Shown here: positions 11,364 to 48,878 of the stretch, piece by piece
Layout of the letters: the number at the start of each line of letters is the position of its first letter
Position numbering within the stretch: position 1 is the stretch's first letter
Notes under the pieces: generated by a model
Database searches by the model: none
What the model was told of the DNA's origin: nothing
What the model saw: only the letters and a program-made list of their open reading frames with translations
Program-made: the position numbers and the translations under genes
DNA from: Lentisphaerota bacterium
GTDB lineage: Bacteria > Verrucomicrobiota > Kiritimatiellia > UBA8416 > JAIOPI01
DNA: 64,000 nucleotides
NCBI GenBank assembly: GCA_021413965.1
Contig: JAIOPI010000019.1
Span: forward strand, 4,585 to 68,584
Direction: 5' to 3'

Positions 11364-12389
11364 CTATGCAATGACCCCGCCCAGCTGACCGCAGGCCGCC
11401 ATGACGTTGCGGCCGCGGGGGTGGCGGCGGCGGACGAAGAGGCCTTGCGCGACCAGCGCGTCGCAGAACTGGTCGACGCGGGCGCGGTCGGGCGTGACGA
11501 AGAGGCGCGAGCTGCCGCCATTATAAGGGATGACGTTCACGCGCACGGGCAAGCCGGCCAGGTAGCGGGCGAGTGCTTCCGCGTGTTCCGGGCTGTCGTT
11601 CACTCCGGCCAGCTGCACGTACTCAATAAAGAAAACGCCGCGGCGAGGCAGAGGAAAGGCCAGCAAGGCGTCTTTCAGGCGTGCGAGCGGGTAGCGCACG
11701 TTCAGGGGCACGAGCTGGTTGCGCAACGCATCGTTCGCCGCATGGATGGAGACCGCCAGGCGCAGATTCGGCAGGCGCTCCGCCGCGAGCCGCCGCAGGC
11801 CGTCGACGTGCCCCGCGGTGGACACCGTCATGTGGCTGCAGGCAAGGTTCAGCCCGCGCTGGTCGGCCATCACGCGTACGGCCTGGATGACAGGCTCGAC
11901 ATTATCCAGCGGCTCCCCCATGCCCATGAAGACGATGTTGTTCACGGGGCGCTTCAGCACGAACCGCGCGGCATAGAGCTGCCACACGATCTCCTCGACC
12001 TGCAGATGGCGGCGCAAGCCCATCTGGCCGGTGACGCAGAATTTGCAACCCATCCGGCAGCCGACCTGCGAGGACACGCACAGCGTCGTGCGACCTTTAT
12101 CCGGAATCAGGACGGATTCGATCGTTTCGCCGTCGGCCAGCGTGGTGATGAACTTGAGCACGCTGCCGTCGTCATGCTGAGCCGAGATGCGGCAGTCTGG
12201 AAAGCGCAAGTCGGCGGCAAGCTGGGCTGCAAGGGTGGGTGCATCCGCGAACTCGGGAGATTCGGCGCAGGTTCTGCGGCCGAGCTTGAACACGTCACGG
12301 TACAGGGCCCGGGCGTGGTAATGACCCTTGCCGTGGAGCCGGTCCAGCTCAGCGGCCAGATCCTTGCAGGTTAAGGAGAGGATGTTCAT
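11364..12389 (-). CDS. rlmN: 23S rRNA (adenine2503-C2)-methyltransferase, radical SAM
   Basis: Radical-SAM CxxxCxxC (CRMGCKFC). Conserved RlmN/Cfr blocks GMGEPLDN and the C-terminal Cys (ACGQL). Confidence 0.85.
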   Translation of the reverse strand: MNILSLTCKDLAAELDRLHGKGHYHARALYRDVFKLGRRTCAESPEFADAPTLAAQLAADLRFPDCRISAQHDDGSVLKFITTLADGETIESVLIPDKGRTTLCVSSQVGCRMGCKFCVTGQMGLRRHLQVEEIVWQLYAARFVLKRPVNNIVFMGMGEPLDNVEPVIQAVRVMADQRGLNLACSHMTVSTAGHVDGLRRLAAERLPNLRLAVSIHAANDALRNQLVPLNVRYPLARLKDALLAFPLPRRGVFFIEYVQLAGVNDSPEHAEALARYLAGLPVRVNVIPYNGGSSRLFVTPDRARVDQFCDALVAQGLFVRRRHPRGRNVMAACGQLGGVIA

Positions 12390-24532: not shown

Positions 24533-24698
24533 GAATGCTGCTCCCCGCGGGCGGCGTGCACCACTCCCGGGACTCGGGTTTCTGCTGCCGCCGCGCGTCG
24601 CCCTGAAGATAGCACAGCGCCTTCCCGCCGCAAACGGAAAGGGCTCTGGTCGCACGTGCCGGCATTGACGCCCGGGCGTGCGGCCCTTAGGCTGCCGC

Positions 24699-25685
24699 AT
24701 GCTTCGCCTATCCAGATGGACTCGCGGCGCATTGGCGTCGCTCCTCGTGCTGGGGCTGATCGGACCGGCGACGGGCAGGGCCTTGGCCGCGCCGCAGCTC
24801 GTGGTCCGCGATCCTGTGTTTGACTTCGGTGCCGTCTTTGACGATGCCCCGCTCACGCGCACCTTTCTGCTGGAAAATGCCGGCGATGCGCCTCTGACCA
24901 TCACGAACATCCGTCCTGGCTGTCCCGAGTGCACGCGTTTCACGCTGGAACGCGACGTCATTCCCGCCGGGGAGTCCGCGACACTGGTTGTCACCCTGGA
25001 AACGGTCGGACTCGAAGACGACGTGACGAAAGAGCTGACGCTGGAAACCAATGATCCCAAGGCGCTGCGGGCGACGCTGACGCTGCGCGGGCACATCATG
25101 CCCCGCTTCGAGTGCCATCCCAAGACGGCCATCATGGAACTCGCCTCGACGAACGCGTTTGGCTCGACGCAGGTGACCATCAACCCGCGGCGCGCCATGA
25201 ACATGCCACTGACTGAAGTGACCTCGGATTCCCCCCTGCTCTACGGCGTGGTCGCTCCCGATGCCGACGGTGCATTCACGCTCCAGATCTACACCCGTCC
25301 GCCATTGCCCACGGGCATCCTGCACGGCCACTTGCGGGTCGCGTCTGCAGACACAAACGATCCGGTGTGCACGGTGAAGGTCGATCTCGGGGTCTGGCCG
25401 GGATTCCTGGCCGTGCCGGATGTCTTGCGGTTCGAGGAGGGTGTGGCCGGGCAGATGCGAATTCTTTTTGTGCGGCAGTTCCCGGATACGCCGCACAGCA
25501 TTCAAAGTGTGGAGGACGCCTCCGGCAACCTCGCCTGCGAGATATATCCCGAGCCTGCCGGTCTGAATTACCGCATCTACGTCTATGCCCGGGAGGTCGC
25601 TGCGGCGGGTGCTGGCACGCTTCTCATCCACACCGACGATCCGGAACAGCCAACCCTCTCCGTCCCCTACGCGTTCGAACACTAA
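24699..25685 (+). CDS. DUF1573-domain secreted protein (two ASH/Ig-like DUF1573 repeats)
   Basis: Signal peptide MLRLSRWTRGALASLLVLGLIGPATGRALA, then DPVFDFGAVFDDAPLTRTFLLENAGDAPLTITNIRPGCPEC, the DUF1573 hallmark. Confidence 0.65.
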   Translation: MLRLSRWTRGALASLLVLGLIGPATGRALAAPQLVVRDPVFDFGAVFDDAPLTRTFLLENAGDAPLTITNIRPGCPECTRFTLERDVIPAGESATLVVTLETVGLEDDVTKELTLETNDPKALRATLTLRGHIMPRFECHPKTAIMELASTNAFGSTQVTINPRRAMNMPLTEVTSDSPLLYGVVAPDADGAFTLQIYTRPPLPTGILHGHLRVASADTNDPVCTVKVDLGVWPGFLAVPDVLRFEEGVAGQMRILFVRQFPDTPHSIQSVEDASGNLACEIYPEPAGLNYRIYVYAREVAAAGAGTLLIHTDDPEQPTLSVPYAFEH

Positions 25686-25737: not shown

Positions 25738-25935
25738 ATGAGAGGGCGGGTATTTGACGGGGTGCGGCGGTTTATAGCCGATGAAGCAGCGCAGGCCATG
25801 ACCGAATATCTGGTCCTGACGATGTTCACCGTCTTGGCCTGTTTGTATCTCCTGAACCCCAATACCGAGCTGTATCAAGGGTTGCGGCGTTTTTACGAAC
25901 TGATCATGCGCGGTGTCTTCTTCCCGGGCCCTTGA
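25738..25935 (+). CDS. Flp/Fap-like pilin (second, divergent copy), non-canonical processing site
   Basis: 65 aa. ...DEAAQAMTEYLVLTMFTVLACLYLL resembles the Flp G/XXXXEY prepilin motif plus hydrophobic helix, but has Ala instead of Gly at -1. Sits directly upstream of the cpaA prepilin peptidase. Confidence 0.4.
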   Translation: MRGRVFDGVRRFIADEAAQAMTEYLVLTMFTVLACLYLLNPNTELYQGLRRFYELIMRGVFFPGP

Positions 25936-25948
25936 GCGTGGCGAGGCG

Positions 25949-26464
25949 ATGTCGATGGACACAATGCTGACAGCGTCGCTGGTGGTGCTTGCCCTGCTGC
26001 TGAGTGTCGCCGTCTACACGGAACTCACGGCGGCCCGCATTCCCAACTGGCTGACGCTGGTGGGCCTCACCTTCGGGTTGCTGTTTGGCGCCTTGCCGGG
26101 CGGGTTGACGCTGGAATCGAGCTTCATGGGCCTGCTGACCGGGTTCGGTGTGCTGTTCATCTTCTATGTCTTCGGCGGCATGGGGGGTGGAGATGTGAAG
26201 CTGATGGGGGCTGTGGGGTCGTTGATCGGCTATCCGATGATCATTTCCGCGTTGGTTTACACCGCCATCATCGGCGGGGTCATGGCCTTGTCTCTGGTGG
26301 CCAGCCGTGGGGTGACGGGGCTGTGCCGCTGGGCGCGCGCCGGTGGCGGCGCGGGGGGCGCCGCCGCCGCACAGACGCCAGCCCCGCCAGCCCGTCTCAC
26401 GGTGCCCTACGCCCTCGCGATCGCCTCGGGGACGCTGCTCGTCTTCTACTTCGGCTCGCGGTAA
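25949..26464 (+). CDS. cpaA: Flp prepilin peptidase (A24 family)
   Basis: Hydrophobic N-terminus and a GGGDVKLMGAVG catalytic-Asp block typical of CpaA/TadV. Confidence 0.8.
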   Translation: MSMDTMLTASLVVLALLLSVAVYTELTAARIPNWLTLVGLTFGLLFGALPGGLTLESSFMGLLTGFGVLFIFYVFGGMGGGDVKLMGAVGSLIGYPMIISALVYTAIIGGVMALSLVASRGVTGLCRWARAGGGAGGAAAAQTPAPPARLTVPYALAIASGTLLVFYFGSR

Positions 26465-26473
26465 CCATTGCAC

Positions 26474-27451
26474 ATGAAACGCCCATTCCAGATCTGGTCC
26501 GATGAGAGCGCGCAGGCGCTGACGGAGTTTGCCGTCGTGGGGCCGATTGTCTTCTTCATCTTCTTCGCCAGTTTCCAATTCATCGCCATGTGGAACGTGC
26601 AGATGATGGTGGACTACGCGGCCTTCTGCGCCGCGCGATCGATTGCCGTGCAGGAGGCCCACATCGGCCCGGCGGCGGCCGGGATCCTGGCGCGAGCCGC
26701 CGCCTCCGTTGCGCTGATGCCGGTTTCCAAGCCTGTCAAAGGCGAGGCGGCCGCTTACCTGCAGCTGCTCGGGGGTGGCTCCGTGCTGAGTGCTCTGAAA
26801 TCCAAGGCCAAGGTCGAGCAGGATCTGCTCATGGCGCTCGGGCGCAGCCTCAACCAGGTGACCGGTGACGGAAACAGCAATGCCAAGGTCCTGGAAAAGA
26901 TGTCCTGGCTGCTGACCGCCTGGGGCCGCATCAATGTCGGGTCTCCCCCCACGGCCCTCTCCTACGGCAAGCAATCCGCCGGCGGGCTCACGGAAGTCAG
27001 TCTCGAGCTGCGCTACGACTATCCCCTCTTCATCCCTGGCTTTGCGGAGTTCTGGAATTACCTGACCGGCACCCCCATGGAGAATGCCTTCACGCGCAAG
27101 TCCGCCGGGATCCCGTTCTTCTTCCAGACCCTGCGCAGCAAGTGCGCGGTGGGCTACGAGGACTTCAGCCGGAACTTTGAGAACAATCCGCACGTGAACA
27201 ACCCGTATGCCGACCGGATCAACAGCGTCGACCAGGACCGGATCAACCAGCTCAACAAGGAAATTGCGCAGCTCCAGCAGGAGTTCCAGCAGGCCAAGTC
27301 CCAGCACGATAGCTGCGGGGCCAATTCCAAGAGCATGGGTTTTGCGACCGTTGGCGCGTGCCAAGCCTTCTACAAGGCCCGGATGGACGATCTTTCGGGC
27401 CAAATCGATGCCAAACGCGCCGAGCTGGACGCCTTGATGCCCAATTTCTGA
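26474..27451 (+). CDS. TadE-like pseudopilin with C-terminal coiled-coil extension
   Basis: N-terminus ESAQALTEFAVVGPIVFFIFF is the TadE motif. C-terminal region is heptad-rich (QLNKEIAQLQQEFQQAKSQ...). Confidence 0.7.
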   Translation: MKRPFQIWSDESAQALTEFAVVGPIVFFIFFASFQFIAMWNVQMMVDYAAFCAARSIAVQEAHIGPAAAGILARAAASVALMPVSKPVKGEAAAYLQLLGGGSVLSALKSKAKVEQDLLMALGRSLNQVTGDGNSNAKVLEKMSWLLTAWGRINVGSPPTALSYGKQSAGGLTEVSLELRYDYPLFIPGFAEFWNYLTGTPMENAFTRKSAGIPFFFQTLRSKCAVGYEDFSRNFENNPHVNNPYADRINSVDQDRINQLNKEIAQLQQEFQQAKSQHDSCGANSKSMGFATVGACQAFYKARMDDLSGQIDAKRAELDALMPNF

Positions 27452-27456: not shown

Positions 27457-28725
27457 ATGAAACGCCTGATACTATTCTTCCTGCAGCCCATCGCCCGGGC
27501 GCGCGGCATGCGCGATAACGATTCCGCGCAGGTGCTGCTGATGACGGCGTTCATGGCCTTCACGCTGGCGGTGTTCATGATCCACTCGCTGAACGCGAGC
27601 CAATCGGTGTTCCGTCGCGTGCAAGTACAGAATGCCGCCGATGCCGCCGCCGACGCCTCGGCCGCCTGGCAGGCGCGTGGCATCAACATGCTGCAGACGC
27701 TGAACAACATGCACTACGTCATGGACGCCGTGCTGTATCTCCCGATCATCCGCATTTGCTGCTGCTGCTCCGAAGCCATCGCGATGTGCGCGGCTTGCGT
27801 GGCCAGCCTCGGGTTCTGCGGGGCCTGTTGCGACGAGTGCACCACCTGCATCGATCTGTGCAGCAAGTGCAGCGACTACGACGATCGACAGGCGGAGATG
27901 CACAAGGATTTCTGGAATGCCGAAGTCAAGGCCATCAAGGTCTCGACGCAGCAGATCTACATCCAGGCCAACCAGTATGCGAAAGCCAATGGCGCCACGC
28001 CTTTCTTCCGGTCGGCCGTGACCTACGTGTCGAACACGGCCTACCAGGCGATTTCCCCGATCTTCCCGATGCACGAGTTTCTGAAGGACTCCATCAAGGC
28101 TGGCGGCAAGGGCGGGCCGCCGCTGCAGTTCGAGAAGCATCGCGGCTCGGCCAACATCGCCATGAAGATCGTCAAGGGGCCCCTGCACGCCGTGCTGATC
28201 TGGGGCGGTCCGTCCTACGACCGCATCTGGGTGAACATGCTGGGCACGGAAAATCCCATCGAAGGTGACGACCGGGCAGGCGCCGCGCTGCTCGGGTACG
28301 AGCCCGTGGAGCCGGGCACCCTGGAATTCCCCTGGGACTTGCCGGAATGGTTCATGCAGTTCTGCTCGCTCGGCCAGAGCGACGGCTGGAACGATGACTA
28401 CTGGGAAATGCGCTCGACTCCCACGCTGACCTGGGCCACCTGCATCAGCAATCAGGTTGGCGGGTTGGTGCGCTTCCTGCCGAAGACGCCACCCACCGAC
28501 AAGCCCGCGAGCATGTTCTGGTATCTGAATCCGGGCCGGATCCCCGAAGTGTCTCTGAGCCCCGTCATGGGGCTCGCCAGCGCCACCTCGCACGGGAAGA
28601 TCGAGGCCACGTCGCTGCTGTCGTTCCAGCTGGGCAAGGCCGGCGCGCAGGGCACGCTGGTGCCGGTCGATCTGCAGGGCCCGTGGTTCCCGCAAGAGGC
28701 GCTGAAGATCGGCATCTTCCATTAG
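27457..28725 (+). CDS. TadG-like (PF13400 Tad-domain) pseudopilin/pilus-associated protein with a 14-Cys cluster
   Basis: N-terminal TM plus VQVQNAADAAADASAAW (Tad-domain motif). Residues 101-138 read ICCCCSEAIAMCAACVASLGFCGACCDECTTCIDLCSKC. Confidence 0.65.
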   Translation: MKRLILFFLQPIARARGMRDNDSAQVLLMTAFMAFTLAVFMIHSLNASQSVFRRVQVQNAADAAADASAAWQARGINMLQTLNNMHYVMDAVLYLPIIRICCCCSEAIAMCAACVASLGFCGACCDECTTCIDLCSKCSDYDDRQAEMHKDFWNAEVKAIKVSTQQIYIQANQYAKANGATPFFRSAVTYVSNTAYQAISPIFPMHEFLKDSIKAGGKGGPPLQFEKHRGSANIAMKIVKGPLHAVLIWGGPSYDRIWVNMLGTENPIEGDDRAGAALLGYEPVEPGTLEFPWDLPEWFMQFCSLGQSDGWNDDYWEMRSTPTLTWATCISNQVGGLVRFLPKTPPTDKPASMFWYLNPGRIPEVSLSPVMGLASATSHGKIEATSLLSFQLGKAGAQGTLVPVDLQGPWFPQEALKIGIFH

Positions 28726-28737
28726 CGAAGGAATAGG

Positions 28738-29367
28738 ATGAACGCTCGCATGCGACGCGACTCGGGACAGGCGATGGTGGAAGCCTGCATCGGCATGGCC
28801 CTGATGGGGATGGTGCTCACCCTGGCCGCCGTGTTCGGCCATATGACGGTGAATCGCAATCGCTGCCTGATCGCGGCGCGCCATGCCGCGTGGATCCGGG
28901 GCAATGGTGGCAGTGTCCCCACCTTCAACCCCGCCGTGCAGAAGGCCTTTGCGCAGAAATTCTTCTACTTCCCCGAAATTGCGCGCCTCGACGAGAACGT
29001 CCAGCGCGCGAAAACCACGCAGATCATGTCCGGCCCGCCGCTGGTCATCCCGTTCATGAAAGATACCATGCATGTCATGCGCATGACGTACGGGCTGACC
29101 CCCGCGCAGGTGGGACAGGCATCCATGAGCCAGCTGCCCTTTCCTCTCGTGTACCTGCGCTCGCGCTTCGATTACCTCAACACCAAGGCGGTGGCGCAGT
29201 TCGACAAGGTGACGACGGCGGCGCTCATCTTCACCATGTCCGATGTCCAGGGCGAGTGCGCCTGGTTTAACGTGTCCGACACCTGGACCGACCCCATCTG
29301 GGTCGGGATCGGCGTCGCCAAACACCTGGAACTTGTCTTCGATGCCATCAGCGATGCTGTCGGTTGA
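28738..29367 (+). CDS. TadE-like pseudopilin
   Basis: RRDSGQAMVEACIGMALMGMVLTLAAVF is the TadE N-terminal motif. Confidence 0.7.
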   Translation: MNARMRRDSGQAMVEACIGMALMGMVLTLAAVFGHMTVNRNRCLIAARHAAWIRGNGGSVPTFNPAVQKAFAQKFFYFPEIARLDENVQRAKTTQIMSGPPLVIPFMKDTMHVMRMTYGLTPAQVGQASMSQLPFPLVYLRSRFDYLNTKAVAQFDKVTTAALIFTMSDVQGECAWFNVSDTWTDPIWVGIGVAKHLELVFDAISDAVG

Positions 29368-30226
29368 TTTGAGGCGCGTCACCCAGCCGGCGCTGACCGT
29401 CTTTCTGACGATCCTGGGGGGGGGGACGCTGTTCCTGCTGGGGGCTGGGCTCCCGTCCCATCGCCCGATGAACGGGTATCGGCTGGCCCCGCCGCCCGCC
29501 GCCACCGCGGCCCCGATCCGCTCGGCCAACCCGGGTCGCCTGGCACCCACGCTGCCCCGCTATCCGGCCATCTCGCGCGTGGCCACGCAGTCCGCCGAAC
29601 TCAATGGCGTTCCCGTGCAGACGCAAACCTTCCACTGCAGCGACCCCGCCGCCGATGTCATGGACTACTACCTCTCCCAGCTCGCGAGCCGCGGCTGGGA
29701 GGATCAAACGGAGGCGTTCTTCAAGATCACACCCTGCCTCGGGGACCGCACCCTCGACCCGCGCCAGCAGCAGGACCTTGCCGAGAAATACGACTTCACG
29801 CGTTCCACGCAGGCCGTGCTGGTGAAGCCGAATGAAAGCATCAACATCACCATCGAGCCGCAATCCGGTGGGGGCTCGAAAGTCAATCTGAGCTGGGCGG
29901 GCACCTCGGATCTGGTGAGTTTCTGGCGCAAGGTCTTGCAGCCTTCCGCCGCGCCCGCGAAGCCTCAGCAGTGGTTCCAGGCCGTGACGCGGAGCGGGCC
30001 GCAGCCGGGACGGATGCAGTTCTTTCGCAGCACGGATACGCCGGACGCCATGATCGCGACGCTGGCGGCGCGGATGCAGCGCGCCGGCTGGACGCCGCAA
30101 CTCCCGGCGGCCAATTCGGCCACGGGAGACAAGACCTGCCTGTTCGTTCAGGGCGACCGCTGGGCGTTTGCGACCGCTCGCACCGTCCGCCCCGGCGAGA
30201 CGTCGGCCGTCCTTGCGGAGCAGTAA
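29354..30226 (+). CDS. hypothetical membrane-anchored periplasmic protein, last gene of the pseudopilin operon
   Basis: N-terminal TM (LTVFLTILGGGTLFLLGAGL), no recognisable domain. Start overlaps the tadE stop. Confidence 0.45.
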   Translation: MLSVDLRRVTQPALTVFLTILGGGTLFLLGAGLPSHRPMNGYRLAPPPAATAAPIRSANPGRLAPTLPRYPAISRVATQSAELNGVPVQTQTFHCSDPAADVMDYYLSQLASRGWEDQTEAFFKITPCLGDRTLDPRQQQDLAEKYDFTRSTQAVLVKPNESINITIEPQSGGGSKVNLSWAGTSDLVSFWRKVLQPSAAPAKPQQWFQAVTRSGPQPGRMQFFRSTDTPDAMIATLAARMQRAGWTPQLPAANSATGDKTCLFVQGDRWAFATARTVRPGETSAVLAEQ

Positions 30227-30261: not shown

Positions 30262-32262
30262 TTATTGCAGCCGGCGCAGGCGTTCCGTGGCGCGGTCGTA
30301 GTAGATGTCGCCCGGCAGGGAGATCTCGAGGATATGCTTGTAGGCGGCGATGGCCCGCGGCGCCTGCCCGAGTTCCTCGAAGGCTTGTCCCTCGCGGTAG
30401 GACTTCTGGCTTTCCTGGGTGATCGCCTTGCGCAACTCCTGGGCGGCCTGCGTGGCCGCGCTGTTGGAGGGATCGGCCGCCGCGGCATGCTCGTAGGCCT
30501 GCACGGCGCCCTTGCGGTCGCCCCCGCGCATCTTGGATGCACCGTCGCTGGCTGAGGCCAGGCTGATGGCTTTCAGGCGCCCGTTGAGCGTGTCCGCCAT
30601 TTGGGCCGCCTCGATCCGGTAGGCATTGGCCTGGTCCGGCTCGGCATCCAGCAGTTCCTTGCAGATGGCCACGCCCCCCTGGATGGCGGGCACGTCGTCC
30701 GACGTCGCCAGGGCCGCCCCGGAGCGCACGCGCTCGATCAACATCGCGACGAGCGTGATGCGATCGCGCAGGGCGCTGAGCTCCTTGTCGCCCGGCGAAT
30801 CCCGCAGCGCGCGTTCCACGGCCGACAGCGCATCCGCCTGCCGCCCGCTACGATACAGGTCCCGCGCTTCGCCCGACGCCGCGGTGTAGGCCATCTGCTC
30901 GTCGGCGCGCTTGATCAATGCGGCCGCTTCGGTGTGATACACGCTGTTCGTGGACACGCTCATGAGCTTGCCCTTGGCCGCCTGGTATTCGGCCTGCTTC
31001 AGGTGCACACGCGCCTGATCCATGCAGGCCGCCGACCCCTGCTCGGAGCGCGCGCGCCCCTGCAGCCGCTTCAGCAGGTCGGACGACGGGTAGCTGTTGG
31101 AGGCTTTGTCCAGCAACCGGATCGCGTCTGTCCAGTTGCGGACCTCGAGTGCCAGCCGGGCTTCGCTGATGGCCTTGATGACTTCTTCCAGTTCCGTGGC
31201 GGCCGCGTTGCTCGGCTCCAGGCGGAAGACGGCGTAGCACGTCTCCAGCGCTTCGTCGAAATGTTCGCTCTCGGCGGCCGCCTGCGCCTTGGCGATGAGG
31301 GACACGATTTCCTCCTGGCGCTGGGCCTGATCGAGTCCCTGCGCGGCGCGGGGATCGTTCGGCTTCAGCGTCAGCGCGGCTTCGAAGTTATGGCGCGCGT
31401 CCGCGTAGTTGCCTTCGGCCAGCAACTGCTCGGCGCGGTTGGTCAACTCGACCGCCTGATCCTTCGGCCAGAGCAGAAGCGCCAGCAGGGTGATCAGAAA
31501 CACGCTGCCCGTCGCGATGAGTGCCACGCGGAGTGCCTTGCGCTTCTTCGCGAGGTCCACCACGCTGAAGGTGAAATACGTGCTGCCAATGCGCAGCTTC
31601 TGGCCATGCTTCAGCGGCTCGCGCTGTACGCGGGTGCCGTCGAGGAAGGTGCCGTTGGCGCTGTTGAGATCCTGAACGAAGAACTCCTGGCCCTGGTGCA
31701 GGATCTGGGCGTGATGAGTCGACGCGGCGTCGTCCGGCAGGACCACGGTGTTGTCCAGCCCGCGGCCCAGTGTCAGCACGCCTTCCCAGTTGCGGTACTT
31801 GGTGCCGCGAATGGCGCCGCTGGTGGCGGACAGGGTGTAATCGAGGGTGCCCTTCGGTTTTCCGGCGCCCATGCTCTTGACGCGATCCGACAGGTTCGGG
31901 TCGGCGACAAAGCGCGTGGCGCCTTCATCGTCTGCTTCCTGCTCGGGTTCCGGCTCGGGCGCCGCCTCCTCGCTGACGATGAAGCGGATGTCAAAGGGGC
32001 CGATGCCGATGGAATCCCCGTCCTTGAGCGTGGCTTCGCCGGAGATGCGCGACCCGTTCAGGCGCGTGCCGTTGCGGCTCGCGTTGTCCACGACCACGAA
32101 ACTGCCGCCGGCCTGCTTGATCAGCGCGTGCTCGCGGGAAACCTGGGTGTCTTCCAGCGGGAGGTCCGCCTGCTTGGAACGCCCCATCACGAACGAGGCC
32201 TTGGCGACGGTGGCCTTTGCAACCTGCTTGTTGTCCTGCGTAACGATCAGCGCTGCCTTCAT
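30262..32262 (-). CDS. tandem-FHA-domain membrane protein with C-terminal TPR-like repeats (candidate TadD/TadZ-substitute)
   Basis: Two FHA modules (FVMGRS...SREHALI...SRNGTRLNG and TLGRG...THHAQI...SANGTFLDG), one TM (LIATGSVFLITLLALLLW), then ~380 aa of helical TPR-like repeats. Confidence 0.75.
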   Translation of the reverse strand: MKAALIVTQDNKQVAKATVAKASFVMGRSKQADLPLEDTQVSREHALIKQAGGSFVVVDNASRNGTRLNGSRISGEATLKDGDSIGIGPFDIRFIVSEEAAPEPEPEQEADDEGATRFVADPNLSDRVKSMGAGKPKGTLDYTLSATSGAIRGTKYRNWEGVLTLGRGLDNTVVLPDDAASTHHAQILHQGQEFFVQDLNSANGTFLDGTRVQREPLKHGQKLRIGSTYFTFSVVDLAKKRKALRVALIATGSVFLITLLALLLWPKDQAVELTNRAEQLLAEGNYADARHNFEAALTLKPNDPRAAQGLDQAQRQEEIVSLIAKAQAAAESEHFDEALETCYAVFRLEPSNAAATELEEVIKAISEARLALEVRNWTDAIRLLDKASNSYPSSDLLKRLQGRARSEQGSAACMDQARVHLKQAEYQAAKGKLMSVSTNSVYHTEAAALIKRADEQMAYTAASGEARDLYRSGRQADALSAVERALRDSPGDKELSALRDRITLVAMLIERVRSGAALATSDDVPAIQGGVAICKELLDAEPDQANAYRIEAAQMADTLNGRLKAISLASASDGASKMRGGDRKGAVQAYEHAAAADPSNSAATQAAQELRKAITQESQKSYREGQAFEELGQAPRAIAAYKHILEISLPGDIYYDRATERLRRLQ

Positions 32263-32269
32263 CTCTCCC

Positions 32270-33754
32270 CTATTCTTCCGTTGGTGCGTATGCCTTCACC
32301 AGATACTGAGCCTCCTGATAGGCCGGATCCCGGCGGTCGGGAATCATCTGCATCAGGCGCGCGGCTTCAAACTGCGCGGTGGCAAAGTCCTGCTGCATGG
32401 CGGCCGCCGTGACTTTGTACCGCTGGTCCCGGATGGCCTGCGCCAGCAGCCCGTTGGCCGAGGTCAGCTGCTTGGACAGGTCCGTGTAGAAATCGGGATG
32501 CGTGCCGAGGGCGGCGGATTTCTGCAGCGCCGCCTTGAAGCGCTCGATCGCGCGGAACAGATTCTCGGGCCGCACGGTGCGCGTGCGCACCAGGTCCTTC
32601 CCGATGTCGTAATCCTGCCGCGCGGCGTCCGTCAGCGTCGCGGGGCTGGTGACGGCCAGGCGGCGCATGGGCTCGTCGGGCAGCGGGTAGTCCACGTACT
32701 TCTGTGCGTCGGCCAGCGCAAAGCTGTTCAGGATGCTGTTGAACTGCTTGGCCACGGTGAAATACTGCGCCAGCGGCGCCGAGCATTCCACCGACAGGCG
32801 CGTGTCGCCCTGCACCACGTAGATCGCCTTGCCCTGGCGCTCCTTGGAGGTGAAGGCATAGAAGATGACGCGCACCTCGTTGATCGTCATGGGGTCGCTG
32901 CCCAGCAGCCGGAAGCCGGGATGGCGCTTGGCCAGCGCGTCCGCGTAGCCGGCAAAGCCGACGGTCAGCCCCTGCGCGCTGTTCTCCATGCTCTTGTCCG
33001 CCAGCACGTCGATGCGCACCCCGTCCGGGGACTCAAAGCGAATCACCACGCCGTCGACCCCTTGCTGCTTCTTCCAGCCGGCGGGATACGACATGGAGTA
33101 GCCATATTGCGCATCCTTGAAGGACGTCAACGTGGCCGCGGGGCCTGCGCCGCCGGAGGTCTGGCGCACAATCGCCACCGCCGCCACGCCTGCGATCAGC
33201 GCGAGAATGACGCCCCCCAGCACCATGCGCGACTTGGGGGTCGACATGACCGCGGTCCGTCGTCCCGGCTTGAGATCCCGCAATTCGGATGCGTCGAGCA
33301 TGCGCGTGTGCTCGGCCTCGAACACGCGCGTGTGGTCGTGCTGCTCCTGCGCGGGCTCGGCATCGTCCTCGGGCATGAAGCGGGTGCCTTCGCCCTCGTG
33401 GCCGTCGTCGTCCGCCGCGCCCTCGCCCTTGGCGGCCTTGGACGCGCCGGTGAAATCGAGGCGGAACTTCTGGCCGCCCACCTGCAACGTGTCCCCCTTG
33501 GCCAGCGGCGCGGCGCGCCCCAGCTTGGCGCCGTTGATCAGGCTGCCGTGCGAACTTCCGAGGTCCTCCACGACCACGGCATCCCGCGAGACCACGAACT
33601 TCATGTGCTTGCGCGACACGGTGGGGTCGTCGATGACCAGCTGGTTGGTCTGGGACCGGCCCGCCGTCAGCTCGCCCAGCGGCAGCGGAAACACCTCATC
33701 CGCGCGGGGCCCGCTCAGAAAGACTAGTTGGAAGCCGCTGTCCATGAGCATCAC
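32270..33754 (-). CDS. FHA-domain membrane protein (FHA - TM - periplasmic domain)
   Basis: FHA module (LTAGRSQTNQLVIDDPTVSRKHMKFV...SSHGSLINGAKL), one TM (MVLGGVILALIAGVAAVAIV), then ~300-aa domain. The GTG/ATG start overlaps the tadC stop. Confidence 0.75.
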   Translation of the reverse strand: MMLMDSGFQLVFLSGPRADEVFPLPLGELTAGRSQTNQLVIDDPTVSRKHMKFVVSRDAVVVEDLGSSHGSLINGAKLGRAAPLAKGDTLQVGGQKFRLDFTGASKAAKGEGAADDDGHEGEGTRFMPEDDAEPAQEQHDHTRVFEAEHTRMLDASELRDLKPGRRTAVMSTPKSRMVLGGVILALIAGVAAVAIVRQTSGGAGPAATLTSFKDAQYGYSMSYPAGWKKQQGVDGVVIRFESPDGVRIDVLADKSMENSAQGLTVGFAGYADALAKRHPGFRLLGSDPMTINEVRVIFYAFTSKERQGKAIYVVQGDTRLSVECSAPLAQYFTVAKQFNSILNSFALADAQKYVDYPLPDEPMRRLAVTSPATLTDAARQDYDIGKDLVRTRTVRPENLFRAIERFKAALQKSAALGTHPDFYTDLSKQLTSANGLLAQAIRDQRYKVTAAAMQQDFATAQFEAARLMQMIPDRRDPAYQEAQYLVKAYAPTEE

Positions 33755-34533
33755 CTCGTGTAGTTCTGAATCATCTGAATGAAGATCGGGGCGAAGATCA
33801 TGATGAACACGGCCGGGAAGATGCAGACGATCAGCGGCGCCAGCATCTTGACCGGCGCTTCCTGCGCCGCCTTCTCCGCCCGCTGCCCGCGGCGCGTGCG
33901 CGCCATGTCGGATTGCACGCGCAGGATTGGCCCGATGCTCGCCCCGAGCTTGTCCGCCTGGATCAGGGCCGACACGACGACCGACAGATCCGGCAGTTGC
34001 ACCCGGTTGGCCATTTCTCGCAAGGCCTCCCGCCGGGTGCGGCCCAGCTCCATCTGGCGGAACAGGCGCTCCATCTCTTCGCGAAAGGCGCCGGCGCGCT
34101 GCTTCTCCACCACGCGCCGCAGCGCCGTGATGAAATCCAGCCCCGCCTCCACCGAGATCGTCAGCAAATCGAGCGCGTCGGGAAGCTGCAGGGCGATCTC
34201 CTTGTGCCGCTTCTCAATGCGCTCCTTGATGTTGATCATGGGAAACTGAAAGCCGAAGGCGATCAGGCCCAGGTAGACGAGAATCTGCTTGGGGCCCTCG
34301 AACAGGAAATCGAACATGGGAATCTGGCGCAGGATCAGCGTGGCCGTGAGCGGGAAGATGACGGCGCTGACCAGCTGCAGGCCGAAGAGATCCGGCCCGC
34401 GCAATCCGCCGGGTTCGCCGGCAGACACCAGCTTCTGTTCCACGCCCTTGACGAATTCGTCGAGGCTGCCGCCGGCGGCGTCCCGGGCCCCGGCGCCAAT
34501 CTGCCCCAGCCATGTCTGTACGGTGCGATTCAT
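33751..34533 (-). CDS. tadC: Flp pilus assembly inner-membrane platform protein TadC (GspF-like)
   Basis: T2SSF-domain blocks and TM topology. Confidence 0.75.
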   Translation of the reverse strand: MNRTVQTWLGQIGAGARDAAGGSLDEFVKGVEQKLVSAGEPGGLRGPDLFGLQLVSAVIFPLTATLILRQIPMFDFLFEGPKQILVYLGLIAFGFQFPMINIKERIEKRHKEIALQLPDALDLLTISVEAGLDFITALRRVVEKQRAGAFREEMERLFRQMELGRTRREALREMANRVQLPDLSVVVSALIQADKLGASIGPILRVQSDMARTRRGQRAEKAAQEAPVKMLAPLIVCIFPAVFIMIFAPIFIQMIQNYTR

Positions 34534-34543
34534 CGCGTGACCC

Positions 34544-35407
34544 TCAATACCTCACATCCGCAACCTTGCGGACCCAGAAATACCCGGCCAGATCCAGCAC
34601 CACCACCGCGACCAGCGCCAGAAAACCGGGGATGGTCGTCCAGAGCAGGCGCATGAGTTCCGGGTTGATCTTGGTGACGAAGAAGCCGAACACGTATGGC
34701 AGGAGCGCCACGACGGTGGCCTGCAGGCGCCCTTGCGCCGTCAGCGATTCCACCTTGCCCTCCAGCAGCTTGCGCGCCCGCACCATCGAGACGATGCGAT
34801 CGAAGATCTCCGCGATGTTGCCGCCCATCTGGCGCGTAATGGACACGGCGATGATGGCCAGCTCGAGGTCCGCGTCGCGCGTGCGCTTGGCGCAGTTTTC
34901 CAGGCTCTTGTCCAGATCCACGCCCACCTTGAACTCGCTCAGCACGAGTTCAAACTCCTGCGACAGTGGCGGCCGCGACTCCTCGACGAGCATCTCCAGG
35001 GCCTGCTGCAAGCTGAACCCGGCGCGCAGGCCGTTGGAGAGCAGCACCAGCCCGTCCACGAGCTGCTCGGCGAACTGCTTGCGCCGCTGCTTCCGGAGGA
35101 ACGCGATCAGCAGCTCGGGGCCGTAGTAGCCGATGATGGCGCCGACGCCCGCGGCAACCAGGGGCGCCGGGGGCTTGGACCCGTAGACCAGGAGGAAGAT
35201 AATGAGGCCGACCGCGGCGGCGCTGGCCAGCTTGATCACCGGGAGATGCTCGACCGGGATGAAGATGAACATCTCGTCGAGCTGGCGCGCCACGCTGGCC
35301 TTGCGGCGCTCCACGCTCTGCGCGACGTTGTTCTTCATCGGCACGTAGACGAGGTAGAACGCCACCACCACGGCTACGAAGGCCAGCAAAAGGACAAGCA
35401 GGAACAT
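34544..35407 (-). CDS. tadB: Flp pilus assembly inner-membrane platform protein TadB (GspF-like)
   Basis: T2SSF-domain. Start ATG sits 2 nt after the cpaF stop. Confidence 0.75.
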   Translation of the reverse strand: MFLLVLLLAFVAVVVAFYLVYVPMKNNVAQSVERRKASVARQLDEMFIFIPVEHLPVIKLASAAAVGLIIFLLVYGSKPPAPLVAAGVGAIIGYYGPELLIAFLRKQRRKQFAEQLVDGLVLLSNGLRAGFSLQQALEMLVEESRPPLSQEFELVLSEFKVGVDLDKSLENCAKRTRDADLELAIIAVSITRQMGGNIAEIFDRIVSMVRARKLLEGKVESLTAQGRLQATVVALLPYVFGFFVTKINPELMRLLWTTIPGFLALVAVVVLDLAGYFWVRKVADVRY

Positions 35408-35409
35408 GA

Positions 35410-36999
<1,590 letters not shown>

Positions 37000-37146
37000 G
37001 GGTACGCTCCAAATGACTGGCCCGCATTGCAAAACGCAACGCGGCATGTGCGAATGCCGGACTTCGAAATTCGGATTTCGAATGCTCGCCAGGCCTTGCC
37101 CGGTGGCAAGACCTGACGCGGTTCGGCTGGCCGTCGGATGCGATCC

Positions 37147-38547
37147 CTATTCCTTGGCAGGCTCTTCGTTCAACAGCCCGCGCCGCTGTTCGCTCAAGGG
37201 CGCCGTCTTGCTCTGCTCCGGGAACACCGGGGTCGGCGTGATGACCACCACCAGTTCGCGATTCTGTTTGCCGCTGGACTTCTCGGCGAAGAACATGCTC
37301 AGGAGCGGCACGTCACCCAGCAGCGGCGTCTTCTCCTTGAACCGCGACTCGAGTGTCTGCACCAGGCCTGATATCAGGATGCTCTCGCCCGTCTTGCACA
37401 AGGTCGTGCTGGTCGTGTCAAACTTGTCCAGGGCGAAGGTGCCGCCCGCCTGCGCGTTGGGGATGCTGACTTCAATCGTGATCTCGTTCATGACGCGGTC
37501 GCGCCCGCGCAGCACGGGCTTCACCGTCAGGATCACGCCGTATTCCACCTTCTCCAGGTTGCCGGCATTGACGCCCGTCACGCTGAAGTAGGTCTCACCC
37601 CCGGAGTGGAAGCGGCCCGTGTCCCCGCTCTTGGTGCTCAGGTGCGGCTGTGCCAGCACCTTGGCGTCGCCCGCGCCGACCAAGGCGTTGATGCGCGCCG
37701 AGACATTGCCGCTGACATTGAATGACGTCGTCGGGCCCTCGCCAGAACCGCCCGAGATCGATGCCCCGGCATCGATGGAGGCGCCCTTCAGGATGTTGTA
37801 GCCCGTCGACTTCGAGCCCTTGGTGTCGACCTGCACGAAGTAGACGTCGGTCTCGATCATCACTTCCTGAACCTTGATCAGGTTGACGACCGTGGGCACG
37901 CGCATCTTGGCCACTTCCGTTGCCCGCGTGACATCGGCTTCATCGTAGACGATCCCTTCAAGCGTGGCGGTGTCGCCGGACACGCGCACGGTGACCGTGT
38001 CCATGCCGATGTCCGTCTGGATGGCCTCCGCGACGAACTGGTTCAATTCCTTCCGGTCCAGCTTGACCAGGTTCAGAATCGCGCCGGAGTAGGCTTCCGC
38101 GACTTGCGACACGCGGTCGTAGTCGGATTTCGTCATCAGGCTGCCATCCAGAACGACCTTGCTGCCGACCTGCTTGACGGTCAGCCCCTCGACTTCGGAG
38201 AGCAGGGCGCGGATTTCTTCCGCGAGACCGCCGACGTCTGCCAGTGACTTGACAGTGACGGTAACGTCAGCCCCTTCCAGCGCCTCCACGCGGATGTCGG
38301 AGGTTCCCTCTTCGAGGCAGGTCACAATCACGGACTTGCCGTCGGAACTGGGCTTGGCATCGGCGACCGATGGATTGGACACCGTGATCTTCTTGACGCC
38401 ACCGGGCACGTCGACCTTCTGGGTCGTGCCAGGGACCAGCTGCAGGTTTGCGGCGCCTGCGCTCAACGCCAAGAGTGCCAGGGCCATGGATGCCAGAATC
38501 GGCATCTTTCCGTATTGCAGAATTTCACGCGCTGTTTTCATCATCAA
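37147..38547 (-). CDS. cpaC: Flp pilus secretin CpaC/RcpA
   Basis: Signal peptide, BON-like N-domains and a C-terminal secretin domain (...GDTGRFHSGGE...VITPT). Confidence 0.8.
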   Translation of the reverse strand: MMMKTAREILQYGKMPILASMALALLALSAGAANLQLVPGTTQKVDVPGGVKKITVSNPSVADAKPSSDGKSVIVTCLEEGTSDIRVEALEGADVTVTVKSLADVGGLAEEIRALLSEVEGLTVKQVGSKVVLDGSLMTKSDYDRVSQVAEAYSGAILNLVKLDRKELNQFVAEAIQTDIGMDTVTVRVSGDTATLEGIVYDEADVTRATEVAKMRVPTVVNLIKVQEVMIETDVYFVQVDTKGSKSTGYNILKGASIDAGASISGGSGEGPTTSFNVSGNVSARINALVGAGDAKVLAQPHLSTKSGDTGRFHSGGETYFSVTGVNAGNLEKVEYGVILTVKPVLRGRDRVMNEITIEVSIPNAQAGGTFALDKFDTTSTTLCKTGESILISGLVQTLESRFKEKTPLLGDVPLLSMFFAEKSSGKQNRELVVVITPTPVFPEQSKTAPLSEQRRGLLNEEPAKE

Positions 38548-38574
38548 ACCTCCCTCGCCAGCCTGTGGCTCCCC

Positions 38575-39432
38575 TTACTTACCCGAATCCACTGATACCG
38601 CTTCCACCGATTGTCCCTTTTGAATCTGCACGATGCGCTGTTTGCGTTCCGCATCCAAATCGCCAATCAGCGACTCGATTTCCTTGAATGTGACGCGCGG
38701 GAGCTTGTCGCGCGACTCGGCCGCGACATCGCCCTCGCGGCGCAGGACCGCGGCCAGTTCGCCGTGCTCCGAGGCAAACATCAGCAGCTGCGCCTCAGGC
38801 AGGGTCACGGACACCGTCACATCCCCACCGCCTTCGCCGGGTTCTGTGAGGGGCTTGCCACCGAAATTCTCGCCGACCGCCAGGACGGTAACATTCTGCA
38901 GCAGAACGACATTCACCATGTCGGACTTCTCGCGCCAGGTCGCGGCGGTGCTGCCGGCCACGGGCGTTTTGGCCTCCTGCTTGTCGGCAAAGCTGCCAAT
39001 GATGTCCACGTGGTCGTTGGGCTGCAGCAGGCTGCCTCCCTTGACGCCACGCGAAATGGGGACCGAGAAGGCGCGCTCACCTTCCGGGATGAGCGTGGCG
39101 AATCCGCCGCGACTCTCAACCTCCAGGTCTGACCAGAGAATGACCTGACCGGCCGCGATGTCCACCCGGGTCTTGCGGCCCACGATCAATTTCACATTGT
39201 CGCTGCCTTCGATGGCCTGGGGTGGGATGAACGCCTCGGGAACGTCCTTGGGTGAGAGCATGTCGAGGGTGAGTTCCGTGCCGCGCGGCACATCCTGCGC
39301 CACCGCCACGACGGGACGCCCCTGCAATTGCGACTGCGCTTCACGCTCCACGCGCTTCACGTAGGACCGCACCGCAAGCAACGCCACCACGCCCAGGACA
39401 ACCGCAATGATCAACGGTAGTCGGTTTTGCAC
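38575..39432 (-). CDS. cpaB: Flp pilus assembly protein CpaB/RcpC (SAF domain)
   Basis: N-terminal TM plus SAF-domain architecture, and locus position between flp and cpaC. Confidence 0.75.
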   Translation of the reverse strand: MQNRLPLIIAVVLGVVALLAVRSYVKRVEREAQSQLQGRPVVAVAQDVPRGTELTLDMLSPKDVPEAFIPPQAIEGSDNVKLIVGRKTRVDIAAGQVILWSDLEVESRGGFATLIPEGERAFSVPISRGVKGGSLLQPNDHVDIIGSFADKQEAKTPVAGSTAATWREKSDMVNVVLLQNVTVLAVGENFGGKPLTEPGEGGGDVTVSVTLPEAQLLMFASEHGELAAVLRREGDVAAESRDKLPRVTFKEIESLIGDLDAERKQRIVQIQKGQSVEAVSVDSGK

Positions 39433-40051: not shown

Positions 40052-41233
40052 ATGGACGCAACGGATGATGAACCCAAGACCATGGCCCTGAGCACCGAGG
40101 ACCTTGCGAACGCCATGAAAGCGGAGGCGGCTTCTCCCGCCAAGCCCAAGTCCGACTCGGGCTCCTTTCTGGTCCTCTTCTTCGCCCCGATCCGGGAGTA
40201 CCTGGAAGATGACGACGTGTCCGAAATCATGATCAACGGTCCGAACCAGATCTACATCGAGCGCAAAGGCAAACTCACCAGCACGCCGGCCAAGTTCCTG
40301 AACGAACAGGCCCTGCAAGCGGCCGTCAAGAACGTGGCCCGCAATGTCGGCCGCATGTTCAACGCCGAGAATCCGCGCCTCGACGCCCGTCTGCCTGATG
40401 GCTCGCGCGTGCACGCCGTGATCCCGCCCCTGTCCCGCCAGGGCACGGTTGTGGCGATCCGCAAGTTCCGGCGCGAAAAGCTCAAGATCGATGACCTCGT
40501 CCGTTTCGGGAGCATTTCGCAATCCGGGGCGCAGCTGCTGGACGTCATCGTCCGTCTCCATAAGAATGTGATCGTGTCGGGCGCCACCTCGTCCGGCAAA
40601 ACGTCCGTGTTGAACGTCCTGAGTTCATTCATTCCCAATGAGGAGCGCATCCTCGTGATCGAGGACGCCAGCGAGCTGCAGTTGCAGCAGGTGCACATTG
40701 TGGCGTTCGAAACGCGCAAGGCAGACGAGCACGGCAAGGGCGAAGTGGCGATCCGCGATCTTGTCCACTCCAGCCTGCGCTTGCGCCCCGACCGTCTGGT
40801 CATCGGCGAAATCCGGGGCGGTGAGGCGCTGGACTTGTTGCAGGCCCTTAACACCGGTCACGCGGGCAGCATGTCCACGATTCACGCCAATGGGCCCGTC
40901 GATGCACTGACGCGCGTGGAGACCTGCGCCTTGCTGAGCGGCATCGATATTCCCTTGTCCGCCCTCCGGTCCCAGGTGGCGTCTGCCATCAATGCCGTGG
41001 TTCACACGGCCAGGCTGTCGGATGGCACGCGCAAGATCACCCACATCACCGAGGTGCTGGGACTGGAAAAGGGTGAGTATGCGGTTCGCGATTTGATCAC
41101 GTTCAAGTCGGGTGGCATGGACGAATCGGGCAAGCTCAAGGGCGCCCACAGCGGGTGCGGCGAGCTGCCCACCTTCATGGACGAAGCCAAAATGCTGCGC
41201 CTGCCCATCGATCCGGCCTGGTTTGCGGTCTGA
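40052..41233 (+). CDS. second CpaF/TadA-family secretion ATPase paralog (no FHA domain)
   Basis: Walker A GATSSGKTS, Asp box and His box (NTGHAGSMSTIHAN), 393 aa. Transcribed divergently from flp. Confidence 0.8.
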   Translation: MDATDDEPKTMALSTEDLANAMKAEAASPAKPKSDSGSFLVLFFAPIREYLEDDDVSEIMINGPNQIYIERKGKLTSTPAKFLNEQALQAAVKNVARNVGRMFNAENPRLDARLPDGSRVHAVIPPLSRQGTVVAIRKFRREKLKIDDLVRFGSISQSGAQLLDVIVRLHKNVIVSGATSSGKTSVLNVLSSFIPNEERILVIEDASELQLQQVHIVAFETRKADEHGKGEVAIRDLVHSSLRLRPDRLVIGEIRGGEALDLLQALNTGHAGSMSTIHANGPVDALTRVETCALLSGIDIPLSALRSQVASAINAVVHTARLSDGTRKITHITEVLGLEKGEYAVRDLITFKSGGMDESGKLKGAHSGCGELPTFMDEAKMLRLPIDPAWFAV

Positions 41234-48405: not shown

Positions 48406-48434
48406 CGTCGGTCCTCCTGGTTGATTGATGAGGC

Positions 48435-48878
48435 TCAAAGATCGCCGAAGGCGTACTTGCTGATCAGCGACTCGATATCGACGGCCGATTCCGTCTGTCG
48501 GATCGTCCCGCCCGCCGGGATGATGCCGTCCGCGGCGCCAGCACTGACTTGCACGTACTTCTCGCCGATCAGGCCGCTGGTCTTGATGGATACGATGGCG
48601 TCGTCGTGGATGGCCAGGCCCGGATCGATCTCCAGCACGACCTTCGCCGCATAGTCTGTGAGCGCAATGCTGACCACGTGGCCAACGTCCACGCCGGCAA
48701 CGACCACCGCGGCACCGCGCCGCAGTCCGCCGGTATCACTAAAGACAGCGGAGACTTCGTAGCCGTGCTTGCCCAGGATTGCGAGGTTCCCCAGCTTGAT
48801 CGACAAATACGCCAGGCAGAGCAGCCCGATGACCATGAAGGCCCCCACGTACAGTTCGAGATTTAATCGGCGCCTCAT
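48435..48878 (-). CDS. mlaD: MlaD (MCE-domain) inner-membrane protein
   Basis: N-terminal TM plus MCE domain. Confidence 0.75.
   Translation of the reverse strand: MRRRLNLELYVGAFMVIGLLCLAYLSIKLGNLAILGKHGYEVSAVFSDTGGLRRGAAVVVAGVDVGHVVSIALTDYAAKVVLEIDPGLAIHDDAIVSIKTSGLIGEKYVQVSAGAADGIIPAGGTIRQTESAVDIESLISKYAFGDL

Follow-up and report, generated by a model that had tools for sequence, protein, structure and literature searches.

A cysteine-dense block in a pilin-like protein

What are thirteen closely spaced cysteines doing in a protein that is otherwise built like a minor pilin? The question is raised by a locus on contig JAIOPI010000019.1 of a Lentisphaerae metagenome-assembled genome (MAG), of which a stretch of 64 kb (the window) was analysed. 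The gene concerned encodes a protein of 422 amino acids (aa), which we file as an apical minor pilin of the TadG/CpaL/KilN class of Tad pili. The best-supported mechanism for its cysteine block, and the one that we cautiously favour, is a ladder of four disulfides connecting two antiparallel helices, which would stiffen an exposed spike at the pilus tip. The features of the protein that are needed below are as follows.

27457..28725, plus strand: gene of the TadG/CpaL/KilN-class apical minor pilin, 422 aa (synteny, and PF13400 in relatives)
27457..27582, plus strand: basic leader, aa 1-24 (...ARARGMRDNDSA), and hydrophobic alpha1N helix, aa 24-42 (sequence and Kyte-Doolittle profile)
27757..27870, plus strand: cysteine block, aa 101-138, with a core of four CxxC motifs; predicted local distance difference test score (pLDDT) 87-89 in the AlphaFold2 (AF2) model
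27805..27819, plus strand: predicted hairpin turn, aa 117-121, between the ascending and descending helices (AF2; mirror centre 119.5)
28711..28722, plus strand: C-terminal tetrapeptide GIFH-COOH with an invariant terminal His (H422 in 14 of the 14 first hits)

The block is in frame with the open reading frame (ORF) 27358/27457..28725 (+), and its translation is CCCCSEAIAMCAACVASLGFCGACCDECTTCIDLCSKC. The initial annotation had counted 14 cysteines here; the translation gives 13 in 38 residues (C101-104, 111, 114, 121, 124, 125, 128, 131, 135 and 138 in the numbering of the 422-aa protein), and the only cysteines outside the block are C303 and C329. Across the 30 other ORFs of the window with Pfam support, cysteine has a frequency of 1.08% and reaches a maximum of four per 38-residue stretch, the maximum in any other reading frame of the window being nine. 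The binomial probability of finding at least 13 cysteines in 38 residues is about 1e-16, and the density of the block is not a chance outcome. Full-length homologues of 39-88% identity, all cysteine-rich at the matching place, confirm the plus-strand frame. The cysteine-dense segment that had been noticed is real. An antisense ORF that runs over the block (27472..29550, minus strand) was considered and is read as a usual by-product of high G+C content, since the G+C content is 66%.

The cysteines form four core CxxC motifs (C101/C104, C111/C114, C125/C128 and C135/C138), to which five clade-specific cysteines (C102, C103, C121, C124 and C131) are added. The initial annotation had placed the block immediately after the transmembrane/Tad domain, which is approximately right: it begins about 30 residues past a weak Tad match at residues 25-69. 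It also lies outside the leader and the membrane helix (residues 24-42), and so is not part of a cleaved or membrane-spanning region, as had been considered.

Conservation of the cysteines

The protein is 100% identical to the NCBI "hypothetical protein" K8T26_09195 (P0001) of a Lentisphaerae MAG. The relatives returned by an exhaustive profile search number 1313 at E<1e-3, 191 at E<1e-10 and 64 at E<1e-30, and the family size is given as at least 64 clusters (50% identity) at the last of these thresholds. Where relatives come from named genomes, these are MAGs of Verrucomicrobiota, Lentisphaerae and Omnitrophota. A second, alignment-based search for homologues added almost nothing new, because the clade is rare.

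The closest seven to eight homologues keep the cysteine block, which refutes a universal absence from homologues, the outcome that the initial annotation had linked to a lineage-specific insertion. Within this cysteine-dense clade the eight columns of the four CxxC motifs are essentially invariant, and the five extra cysteines are common to the protein, P0002 and P0004. P0004, which is 46% identical overall, retains 13 of the 13 cysteines versus 9 of the 25 other block residues, a pattern that points to strong selection on the cysteines. The eight core cysteines also persist in hydrophilic settings, such as C-DD-C and C-KH-C, in P0005, P0003 and P0015. Typical members of the wider family, which comes from metagenome genomes of the Planctomycetes-Verrucomicrobia-Chlamydiae (PVC) group, have three to four cysteines in the hairpin, usually a single cysteine in the ascending helix and a CxxC in the descending helix, and because of this the dense block is judged from the alignments to be a clade-specific elaboration of a smaller and more widespread apex-cysteine motif. 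The hairpin region of distant members has no cysteines and is filled with Ala, Val, Leu and Gly.

Two details of the alignment concern possible metal ligands. At residue 103 (27763..27765, plus strand) the four 8-Cys relatives all have His (CFHC, CKHC, CVHC and CIHC) and the CCCC relatives have Cys, so that two metal-ligand residues are exchanged at a position predicted to face the solvent. The stretch C125-DE-C128-TT-C131-IDL-C135 (27829..27861, plus strand) has the CX2CX2CX3C spacing of 4Fe-4S ferredoxins, and in P0004 it is followed by a proline, as in the classical 4Fe-4S ferredoxin signature. This spacing occurs in P0001, P0002 and P0004 only, and not in P0003, P0005, P0006, P0007 or P0015; it is probably coincidental, because it is confined to three members of the clade.

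Database comparisons gave no known family for the segment. Neither the cysteine segment, nor the 8-Cys segment of P0005, nor the C-terminal 241 aa of the protein matches a Pfam family even at E <= 10, and the cysteine segment has a single, non-significant match among PDB sequences (E 4.5). There is no Fer4 match in Pfam, and the signal is of the pilin type, not Tat. No likeness to Csp copper-storage proteins or metallothioneins was found (no PDB sequence at E <4.5, no Foldseek match to the PDB at E <1 and no Pfam match). In the searches made of the literature on cysteine-rich or zinc-binding minor pilins, a hairpin motif of four CxxC was not found described.

Predicted structure and mirror symmetry

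The AF2 model of the protein, built from an alignment of 11 sequences, has a mean pLDDT of 72, with the values of 87-89 listed above across the block. It consists of a helix at residues 22-116, the turn at 117-121 and two further helices (122-135 and 138-177), followed by a domain of mixed alpha/beta structure. A second model, with the 8-Cys relative P0005 as target, has a like architecture, the loop being at 142-145. The cysteine block is thus predicted to lie at the distal end of a long hairpin of antiparallel helices, where it forms the apex, well away from the membrane helix. Foldseek searches of the PDB returned only generic helical hairpins (E >= 1.5), and no significant fold match for the C-terminal alpha/beta domain. 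The Kyte-Doolittle profile flags residues 87-125 as hydrophobic, but a second, membrane-embedded hairpin was rejected because it is the cysteines that drive the score, the 8-Cys relatives are hydrophilic in this region, and the first helix of the AF2 model outruns the membrane segment.

Cysteines occupy every a and d heptad position of the descending helix from 121 to 138. The mirror positions of the ascending helix are held by Cys101, Cys104, Ile108, Cys111, Val115 and Leu118, and together these positions would form a normal antiparallel coiled-coil core. The positions of the core cysteine pairs all sum to 239 in the protein, which gives a centre of 119.5, inside the predicted turn; in P0005 they all sum to 288, with a centre of 144.0, again inside the predicted turn. 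In P0015, P0005 and P0007 all eight cysteines fall into four perfect mirror pairs, at three different spacings and with loops of differing length, each with p ~0.001 against random placement. Each helix has two interleaved Cx9C spacings (C101-x9-C111 and C104-x9-C114 on one, C125-x9-C135 and C128-x9-C138 on the other).

The partners also change together. The innermost rung of P0007 has both its partners shifted three residues toward the turn, resulting in C-x5-C on each helix. P0006 has Gln and Gly in place of the two partners of rung 111:128 and keeps the adjoining rung. Joint shift and joint loss of this kind fit independent cross-helix disulfides, and either change would break a four-ligand site.

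A disulfide ladder and its alternatives

In the proposed mechanism, the pilin-type N-terminal helix would insert in the membrane and the exported part would fold into a pilin-like domain, from which the long antiparallel hairpin would project with the cysteine block at its distal end. Periplasmic oxidation would then create four inter-helix disulfides, with the rungs C101:C138, C104:C135, C111:C128 and C114:C125, a ladder roughly equivalent to two interleaved twin-Cx9C (CHCH-like) staples. By locking the exposed spike, such a ladder could protect it from unfolding, from proteolysis and from the pull to which a pilus tip is subjected. The five extra cysteines may fill the core opposite Ile, Val and Leu, may form one or two more bridges (C121-C124, located at a helix N-cap, is one candidate), or may leave a free thiol. 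The cysteine block and its conservation, the locus, the missing Glu+5, the predicted hairpin and its mirror symmetry are what the analysis shows; oxidation state, tip location and mechanical role are what we infer for this ladder, which is favoured because of the mirror-symmetric CxxC pairs, the joint shift or loss of partners and the exported location. An invariant C-x14-C pair in the helical tail of the neighbouring TadE-like minor pilin 1 adds support. The KilLMN tip complexes of Myxococcus, which are homologues of TadE/F/G, are reported to have numerous predicted intramolecular disulfides (PMC12075869).

Several points weigh against the ladder. Two Zn(Cys)4 sites, too, have four CxxC motifs as their classic signature. 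The pairing of the cysteines was judged by mirror and covariation analysis of sequences, and not by S-S distances. The cysteine count of the block is odd and five cysteines have no mirror partner; in the 13-Cys members the mirror test alone is not significant (p ~0.67) because the cysteines are so dense, and pairing there consequently rests on column homology to the 8-Cys members. Only about eight sequences, including the protein itself, have 8-13 cysteines in the hairpin, and across the family 61 even against 52 odd counts give no bias toward even numbers of cysteines. Finally, no thiol oxidase of the Dsb or VKOR type is among the approximately 46 ORFs scanned, all of them in the 64-kb window; VKOR homologues are known in some Verrucomicrobia (PMC4555120).

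The initial annotation had proposed a metal-binding module or a disulfide knot. The disulfide part is the better supported, in the form of a hairpin ladder and not a knot; the metal part has weak hints and no database support. A metal module would consist of two tetrathiolate sites for Zn2+ or Fe, or of a Cu(I)-thiolate or Fe-S cluster on the cysteine-lined helices, and if present might have a structural, a redox- or metal-sensing, or a mineral-binding role at the pilus tip. We consider this unlikely. The four CxxC motifs do make the canonical pattern of two Cys4 sites, but both AF2 models predict them inside helices and not in zinc-knuckle turns. The small Tim proteins, whose helical twin-Cys motifs can bind Zn when reduced, offer a precedent for zinc on helices; in P0007, however, the ligands of the inner site would stand six residues (~9 Angstrom) apart on each helix, and P0006 drops two of the four ligands of one site although the other two remain. 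The ligand-for-ligand swap at position 103, His in the 8-Cys and Cys in the 13-Cys sub-clade, and the C125-C135 spacing followed by Pro in P0004 speak for a metal, yet the ferredoxin-like spacing is limited to three members, the segment has neither a Pfam match nor more than the one non-significant PDB sequence match, and the wider family has only three to four cysteines in the hairpin. A pilin-type signal implies export in the unfolded state and not through Tat, a route with which a pre-assembled Fe-S cluster is hard to reconcile when it is the former. The odd cysteine count, the lack of an even bias in the family and the lack of a thiol oxidase gene in the window would all suit metal binding.

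There is a slim chance that the cysteines, bound neither to each other nor to a ligand, simply act as small hydrophobic side chains within the coiled-coil core of the hairpin, or are a compositional quirk of one lineage. Three of the extra cysteines oppose Ile108, Val115 and Leu118 in the mirror layout, the distant members have Ala, Val, Leu and Gly instead of cysteine in this region, and the Kyte-Doolittle scale rates the block as hydrophobic. It is difficult to reconcile this with 13 of 13 cysteines being invariant at 46% identity when 64% of the other block residues have changed, with the retention of the eight core cysteines in the hydrophilic contexts of P0005, P0003 and P0015, with mirror partners that shift and vanish jointly, or with a density far beyond that of the other ORFs and frames of the window. 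Slimmer still is the chance that the block is for intermolecular thiol chemistry, with disulfides to partner minor pilins (for example to C283/C298 of TadE-like 1) or to cysteine-rich targets, which would mean covalent assembly of the tip or covalent adhesion. The odd number of cysteines, the predicted solvent-facing side on which C102 and C103 lie and the conserved cysteines in the helical tail of TadE-like 1 are in line with it, as is the CGAC motif (C121-C124) at a predicted helix N-cap, the usual place of a redox-active CxxC; but the 8-Cys relatives have no unpaired cysteine in the block, and the thioredoxin-fold context is missing.

Assignment to the apical minor pilins

The likeliest start of the gene is the ATG at 27457, five bases past the stop codon of the upstream gene. 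The encoded N-terminus, ...ARARGMRDNDSA followed by QVLLMTAFMAFTLAVFMI, is of the class III pilin type, with a charged leader, a small residue at -1 and a hydrophobic helix (Kyte-Doolittle peak at residues 24-42, score 2.14), and the putative site of peptidase cleavage, as read from the sequence, is between A24 and Q25. A D[DE]S[AG] motif followed by Q precedes the hydrophobic helix in all four pilin-like genes of the locus. The Flp candidate and both TadE-like proteins have Glu at +5 from this site; the 422-aa protein has Met there, and its homologues Leu, Val or Ile. A missing Glu+5 marks the most apical subunit, namely GspK or PilK, and TadG/CpaL in Tad systems (PMC12918778).

PF13400, the Tad/TadG N-terminal domain, matches the protein below threshold (15.4 bits, E 0.024, residues 25-69; the gathering score is 22.3 bits). 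It matches 13 of the 14 first homologues, with a best E of 7.2e-9, and one homologue has the NCBI name "TadG-related". The invariant residues Q58, D62, A64 and A65 and the WQARG motif are within the region of this match. No vWA/MIDAS domain, nor any other Pfam or NCBIfam domain, was found in the protein beyond the N-terminus, and a vWA/MIDAS domain is not universal in the TadG/CpaL class.

At the other end, a C-terminus consisting of hydrophobic-x-aromatic-His (xIxH-type) is also observed in most complete representatives of the family. Residues 419-422 have pLDDT <50 in the monomer AF2 model. CpaL requires an extreme C-terminal beta-strand, which complements the pilin-like sheet (PMC12918778), and by analogy the GIFH tail may be a complementing strand of the same kind. 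The protein is filed in the TadG/CpaL/KilN class, without a vWA domain, because of its locus, the PF13400 hits of its family, the absent Glu+5 and the conserved C-terminal tail. The description "TadG-like pseudopilin" given by the initial annotation is supported by the PF13400 matches of the relatives, the two flanking TadE-like genes, the Flp and A24 peptidase genes and the conserved synteny.

The Tad locus

The gene belongs to an operon of pilin-like genes that converges with an operon for the Tad machinery.

25738..25935, plus strand: Flp-type major pilin candidate, 65 aa (...DEAAQAMTEYLVL..., ...AAQAMTEY...), from the ORF and the motif, with Glu+5 after the putative A-Q cleavage site
25913..26464, plus strand: prepilin peptidase (Peptidase_A24; PF01478, E 8.6e-19)
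26468..27451, plus strand: TadE-like minor pilin 1, 327 aa, ...DESAQALTEF... (PF07811, E 2.3e-6)
28738..29367, plus strand: TadE-like minor pilin 2, 209 aa, ...RDSGQAMVEA... (PF07811, E 0.006, below threshold)
29342..30226, plus strand: fifth conserved operon gene, ~294 aa (synteny; no Pfam hit in this window)
30262..39432, minus strand: convergent Tad machinery operon (Pfam hits, as for the six entries that follow)
30262..32262, minus strand: FHA-FHA-TPR protein with two FHA stretches
32270..33754, minus strand: FHA protein
33751..34533 and 34544..~35400, minus strand: TadC- and TadB-like T2SSF proteins
35410..37047, minus strand: FHA-fused CpaF/TadA ATPase (FHA at aa 40-102, T2SSE at aa 191-467)
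37147..38547, minus strand: secretin
38575..39432, minus strand: RcpC/CpaB

The order of the plus-strand genes is conserved around homologues from Verrucomicrobia and other metagenome contigs (loci L001, L002, L003 and L017). The sample records consulted name no habitat. At the place of the Flp candidate, L001-L003 have a gene for 61-69 aa, and the position of the peptidase is matched in L001, L002, L003 and L017. A gene for approximately 206 aa 3' of the cysteine-block gene is kept in L001, L003 and L017. The counterpart of the fifth gene in L017 encodes 294 aa and has a weak match to PF27226; it is also present in L001, L003 and L018.

TadE-like minor pilin 1 has a long, coiled-coil-like C-terminal tail, at the middle of which lies the invariant C283/C298 pair (C-x14-C). 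In an alignment with two orthologues, C226, C283 and C298 are all invariant, and C283/C298 may be a second disulfide-stapled hairpin in the tip complex.

Immediately 5' of the Flp gene is a gene (24678..25685, plus strand) for a DUF1573/HYDIN-VesB-like Ig-domain protein with a signal-like N-terminus. This neighbour may not be conserved, because L001 and L002 have a gene for 168-171 aa without a Pfam hit in its place. Beyond the RcpC/CpaB end of the machinery operon, on the opposite strand, lies a second T2SSE-family ATPase of 393 aa, without FHA (40052..41233, plus strand). Further along are genes for Mla-type lipid transport (MlaA, MlaC, an ABC ATPase and MlaE; 46892..50778, minus strand) and an ORF of 2189 aa (53901..60470, minus strand) that has two matches to Ser/Thr protein kinase domains and is adjoined by a PP2C-type phosphatase (60504..62564, minus strand). 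These last two are plausible upstream partners for the FHA proteins of the Tad locus. Maturation of the cysteine block by a radical SAM enzyme was rejected: the gene for such an enzyme (11364..12389) is separated from the block by 15 kb and has no part in the conserved synteny.

Comparison with known systems

As with TadG of Aggregatibacter and CpaL of Caulobacter, the apical minor pilin-like proteins of Tad (type IVc) pili, the gene has tadE/tadF-like genes and a prepilin peptidase gene as neighbours; the protein has an N-terminal helix of the PF13400 type without Glu+5, and is the largest of three minor pilins, with a conserved extreme C-terminus. Sequence similarity to classical TadG is confined to the N-terminal ~70 residues, however, and the protein differs from CpaL and many TadG proteins in lacking a vWA/MIDAS domain, and from the TadG/CpaL group in its cysteine-capped long helical hairpin and uncharacterised alpha/beta domain.

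The locus also resembles the Kil system of Myxococcus xanthus, with which it shares an FHA-fused CpaF-type ATPase together with several FHA proteins, and a three-gene cluster of minor pilins beside a prepilin peptidase. Seef et al. name as distinguishing features of Kil the fusion of the ATPase to FHA and an excess of FHA proteins (PMC8460266). This signature of a predation system spans 30262..37047 on the minus strand, in a host that here is a Lentisphaerae MAG. Unlike Kil, the Lentisphaerae host comes without evidence of predation, and no type III secretion-like (T3SS*) genes were seen in the window. For KilN4, Herrou et al. describe "two long alpha-helices" and a beta-scaffold, situated at the end of a tip complex with the shape of a spearhead (PMC12075869). 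The likeness of our protein to KilN is one of published descriptions of this kind, and not of compared sequences. The passages on cysteine and disulfide in the main texts of PMC8460266 and PMC12075869, supplementary figures excluded, do not mention a ladder of four CxxC.

GspK, PilK and PilX, the apical (pseudo)pilins of type II secretion and type IVa pili, are the largest subunits of their complexes and have an inserted helical domain. Like them the protein lacks Glu+5, as is appropriate for the top position in a tip complex, but it has no detectable sequence or fold match to them; GspK has Ca2+ sites and few cysteines. In PilY1 of Pseudomonas aeruginosa, as cited in PMC12607857, a disulfide in the vWA domain controls the mechanics of the tip domain. 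The proposed mechanical role of disulfides in a pilus-tip protein would be common to both, although PilY1 has another fold (vWA, not a hairpin of helices), has only one critical disulfide and belongs to a type IVa system.

Outside the pili, the closest resemblance of mechanism is with the CHCH/twin-Cx9C and twin-Cx3C proteins (Cox17, Mia40 substrates and small Tims). Interleaved Cx9C spacings staple the hairpins of mitochondrial CHCH proteins, and in our hairpin too cysteines are found at i and i+10 of each helix, with a mirror placement that would pair inner with inner and outer with outer. This is a likeness of mechanism only: the protein is a non-homologous (no Pfam match at E <= 10) bacterial exported pilin, with four rungs where CHCH proteins have two, and its oxidation would be periplasmic and not dependent on Mia40. 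The Cys4 zinc sites of coiled-coil hairpins (the Rad50 zinc hook and DksA) and the cysteine-lined copper-storage bundles Csp1/Csp3 are similar in having cysteines at or near the apex of antiparallel coiled coils, as with the CxxC motifs here, and in Csp1 13 helix-borne cysteines line the helical bundle. There is no sequence or structural match to any of these, and the two helices of the hairpin differ from the closed four-helix bundle of Csp; the route of export and the paired shift and loss of cysteines further argue against four-ligand sites. The evidence does not support placing the protein in the CHCH, zinc-ribbon, ferredoxin or Csp family.

Implications for Tad pilus tips

According to a recent proposal, the tips of Tad pili are modular, and what a pilus touches is determined by the variable part of TadG/CpaL/KilN. 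Cysteine-rich, disulfide-stabilised tip proteins are already expected. Beyond its N-terminal helix the present family is without a counterpart in Pfam, NCBIfam or the PDB, and among tip architectures it would be a new one: a spike made of helices, held together at its apex by four CxxC motifs in a mirror-symmetric ladder. If the four-rung disulfide ladder is correct, it would be a compact counterpart, in bacteria, of the twin-CxnC hairpin of mitochondria, and would offer a candidate design for pilus tips that resist force. It is rather doubtful that the hairpin gives a Kil-like Tad pilus of PVC bacteria a working redox or metal centre at its tip (Cu(I), Zn or Fe-thiolate, or a set of thiols open to exchange) and is more than a passive staple; the contact chemistry of such a centre would be the sensing or damaging of another cell, the binding of sulfide or metal minerals, or the formation of covalent disulfides to a target. 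Should metal be bound, this would be the first metal-thiolate centre on the tip of a type IV filament. The FHA-rich, Kil-like machinery of the locus also raises the question of contact-dependent, phospho-regulated Tad systems in the PVC group.

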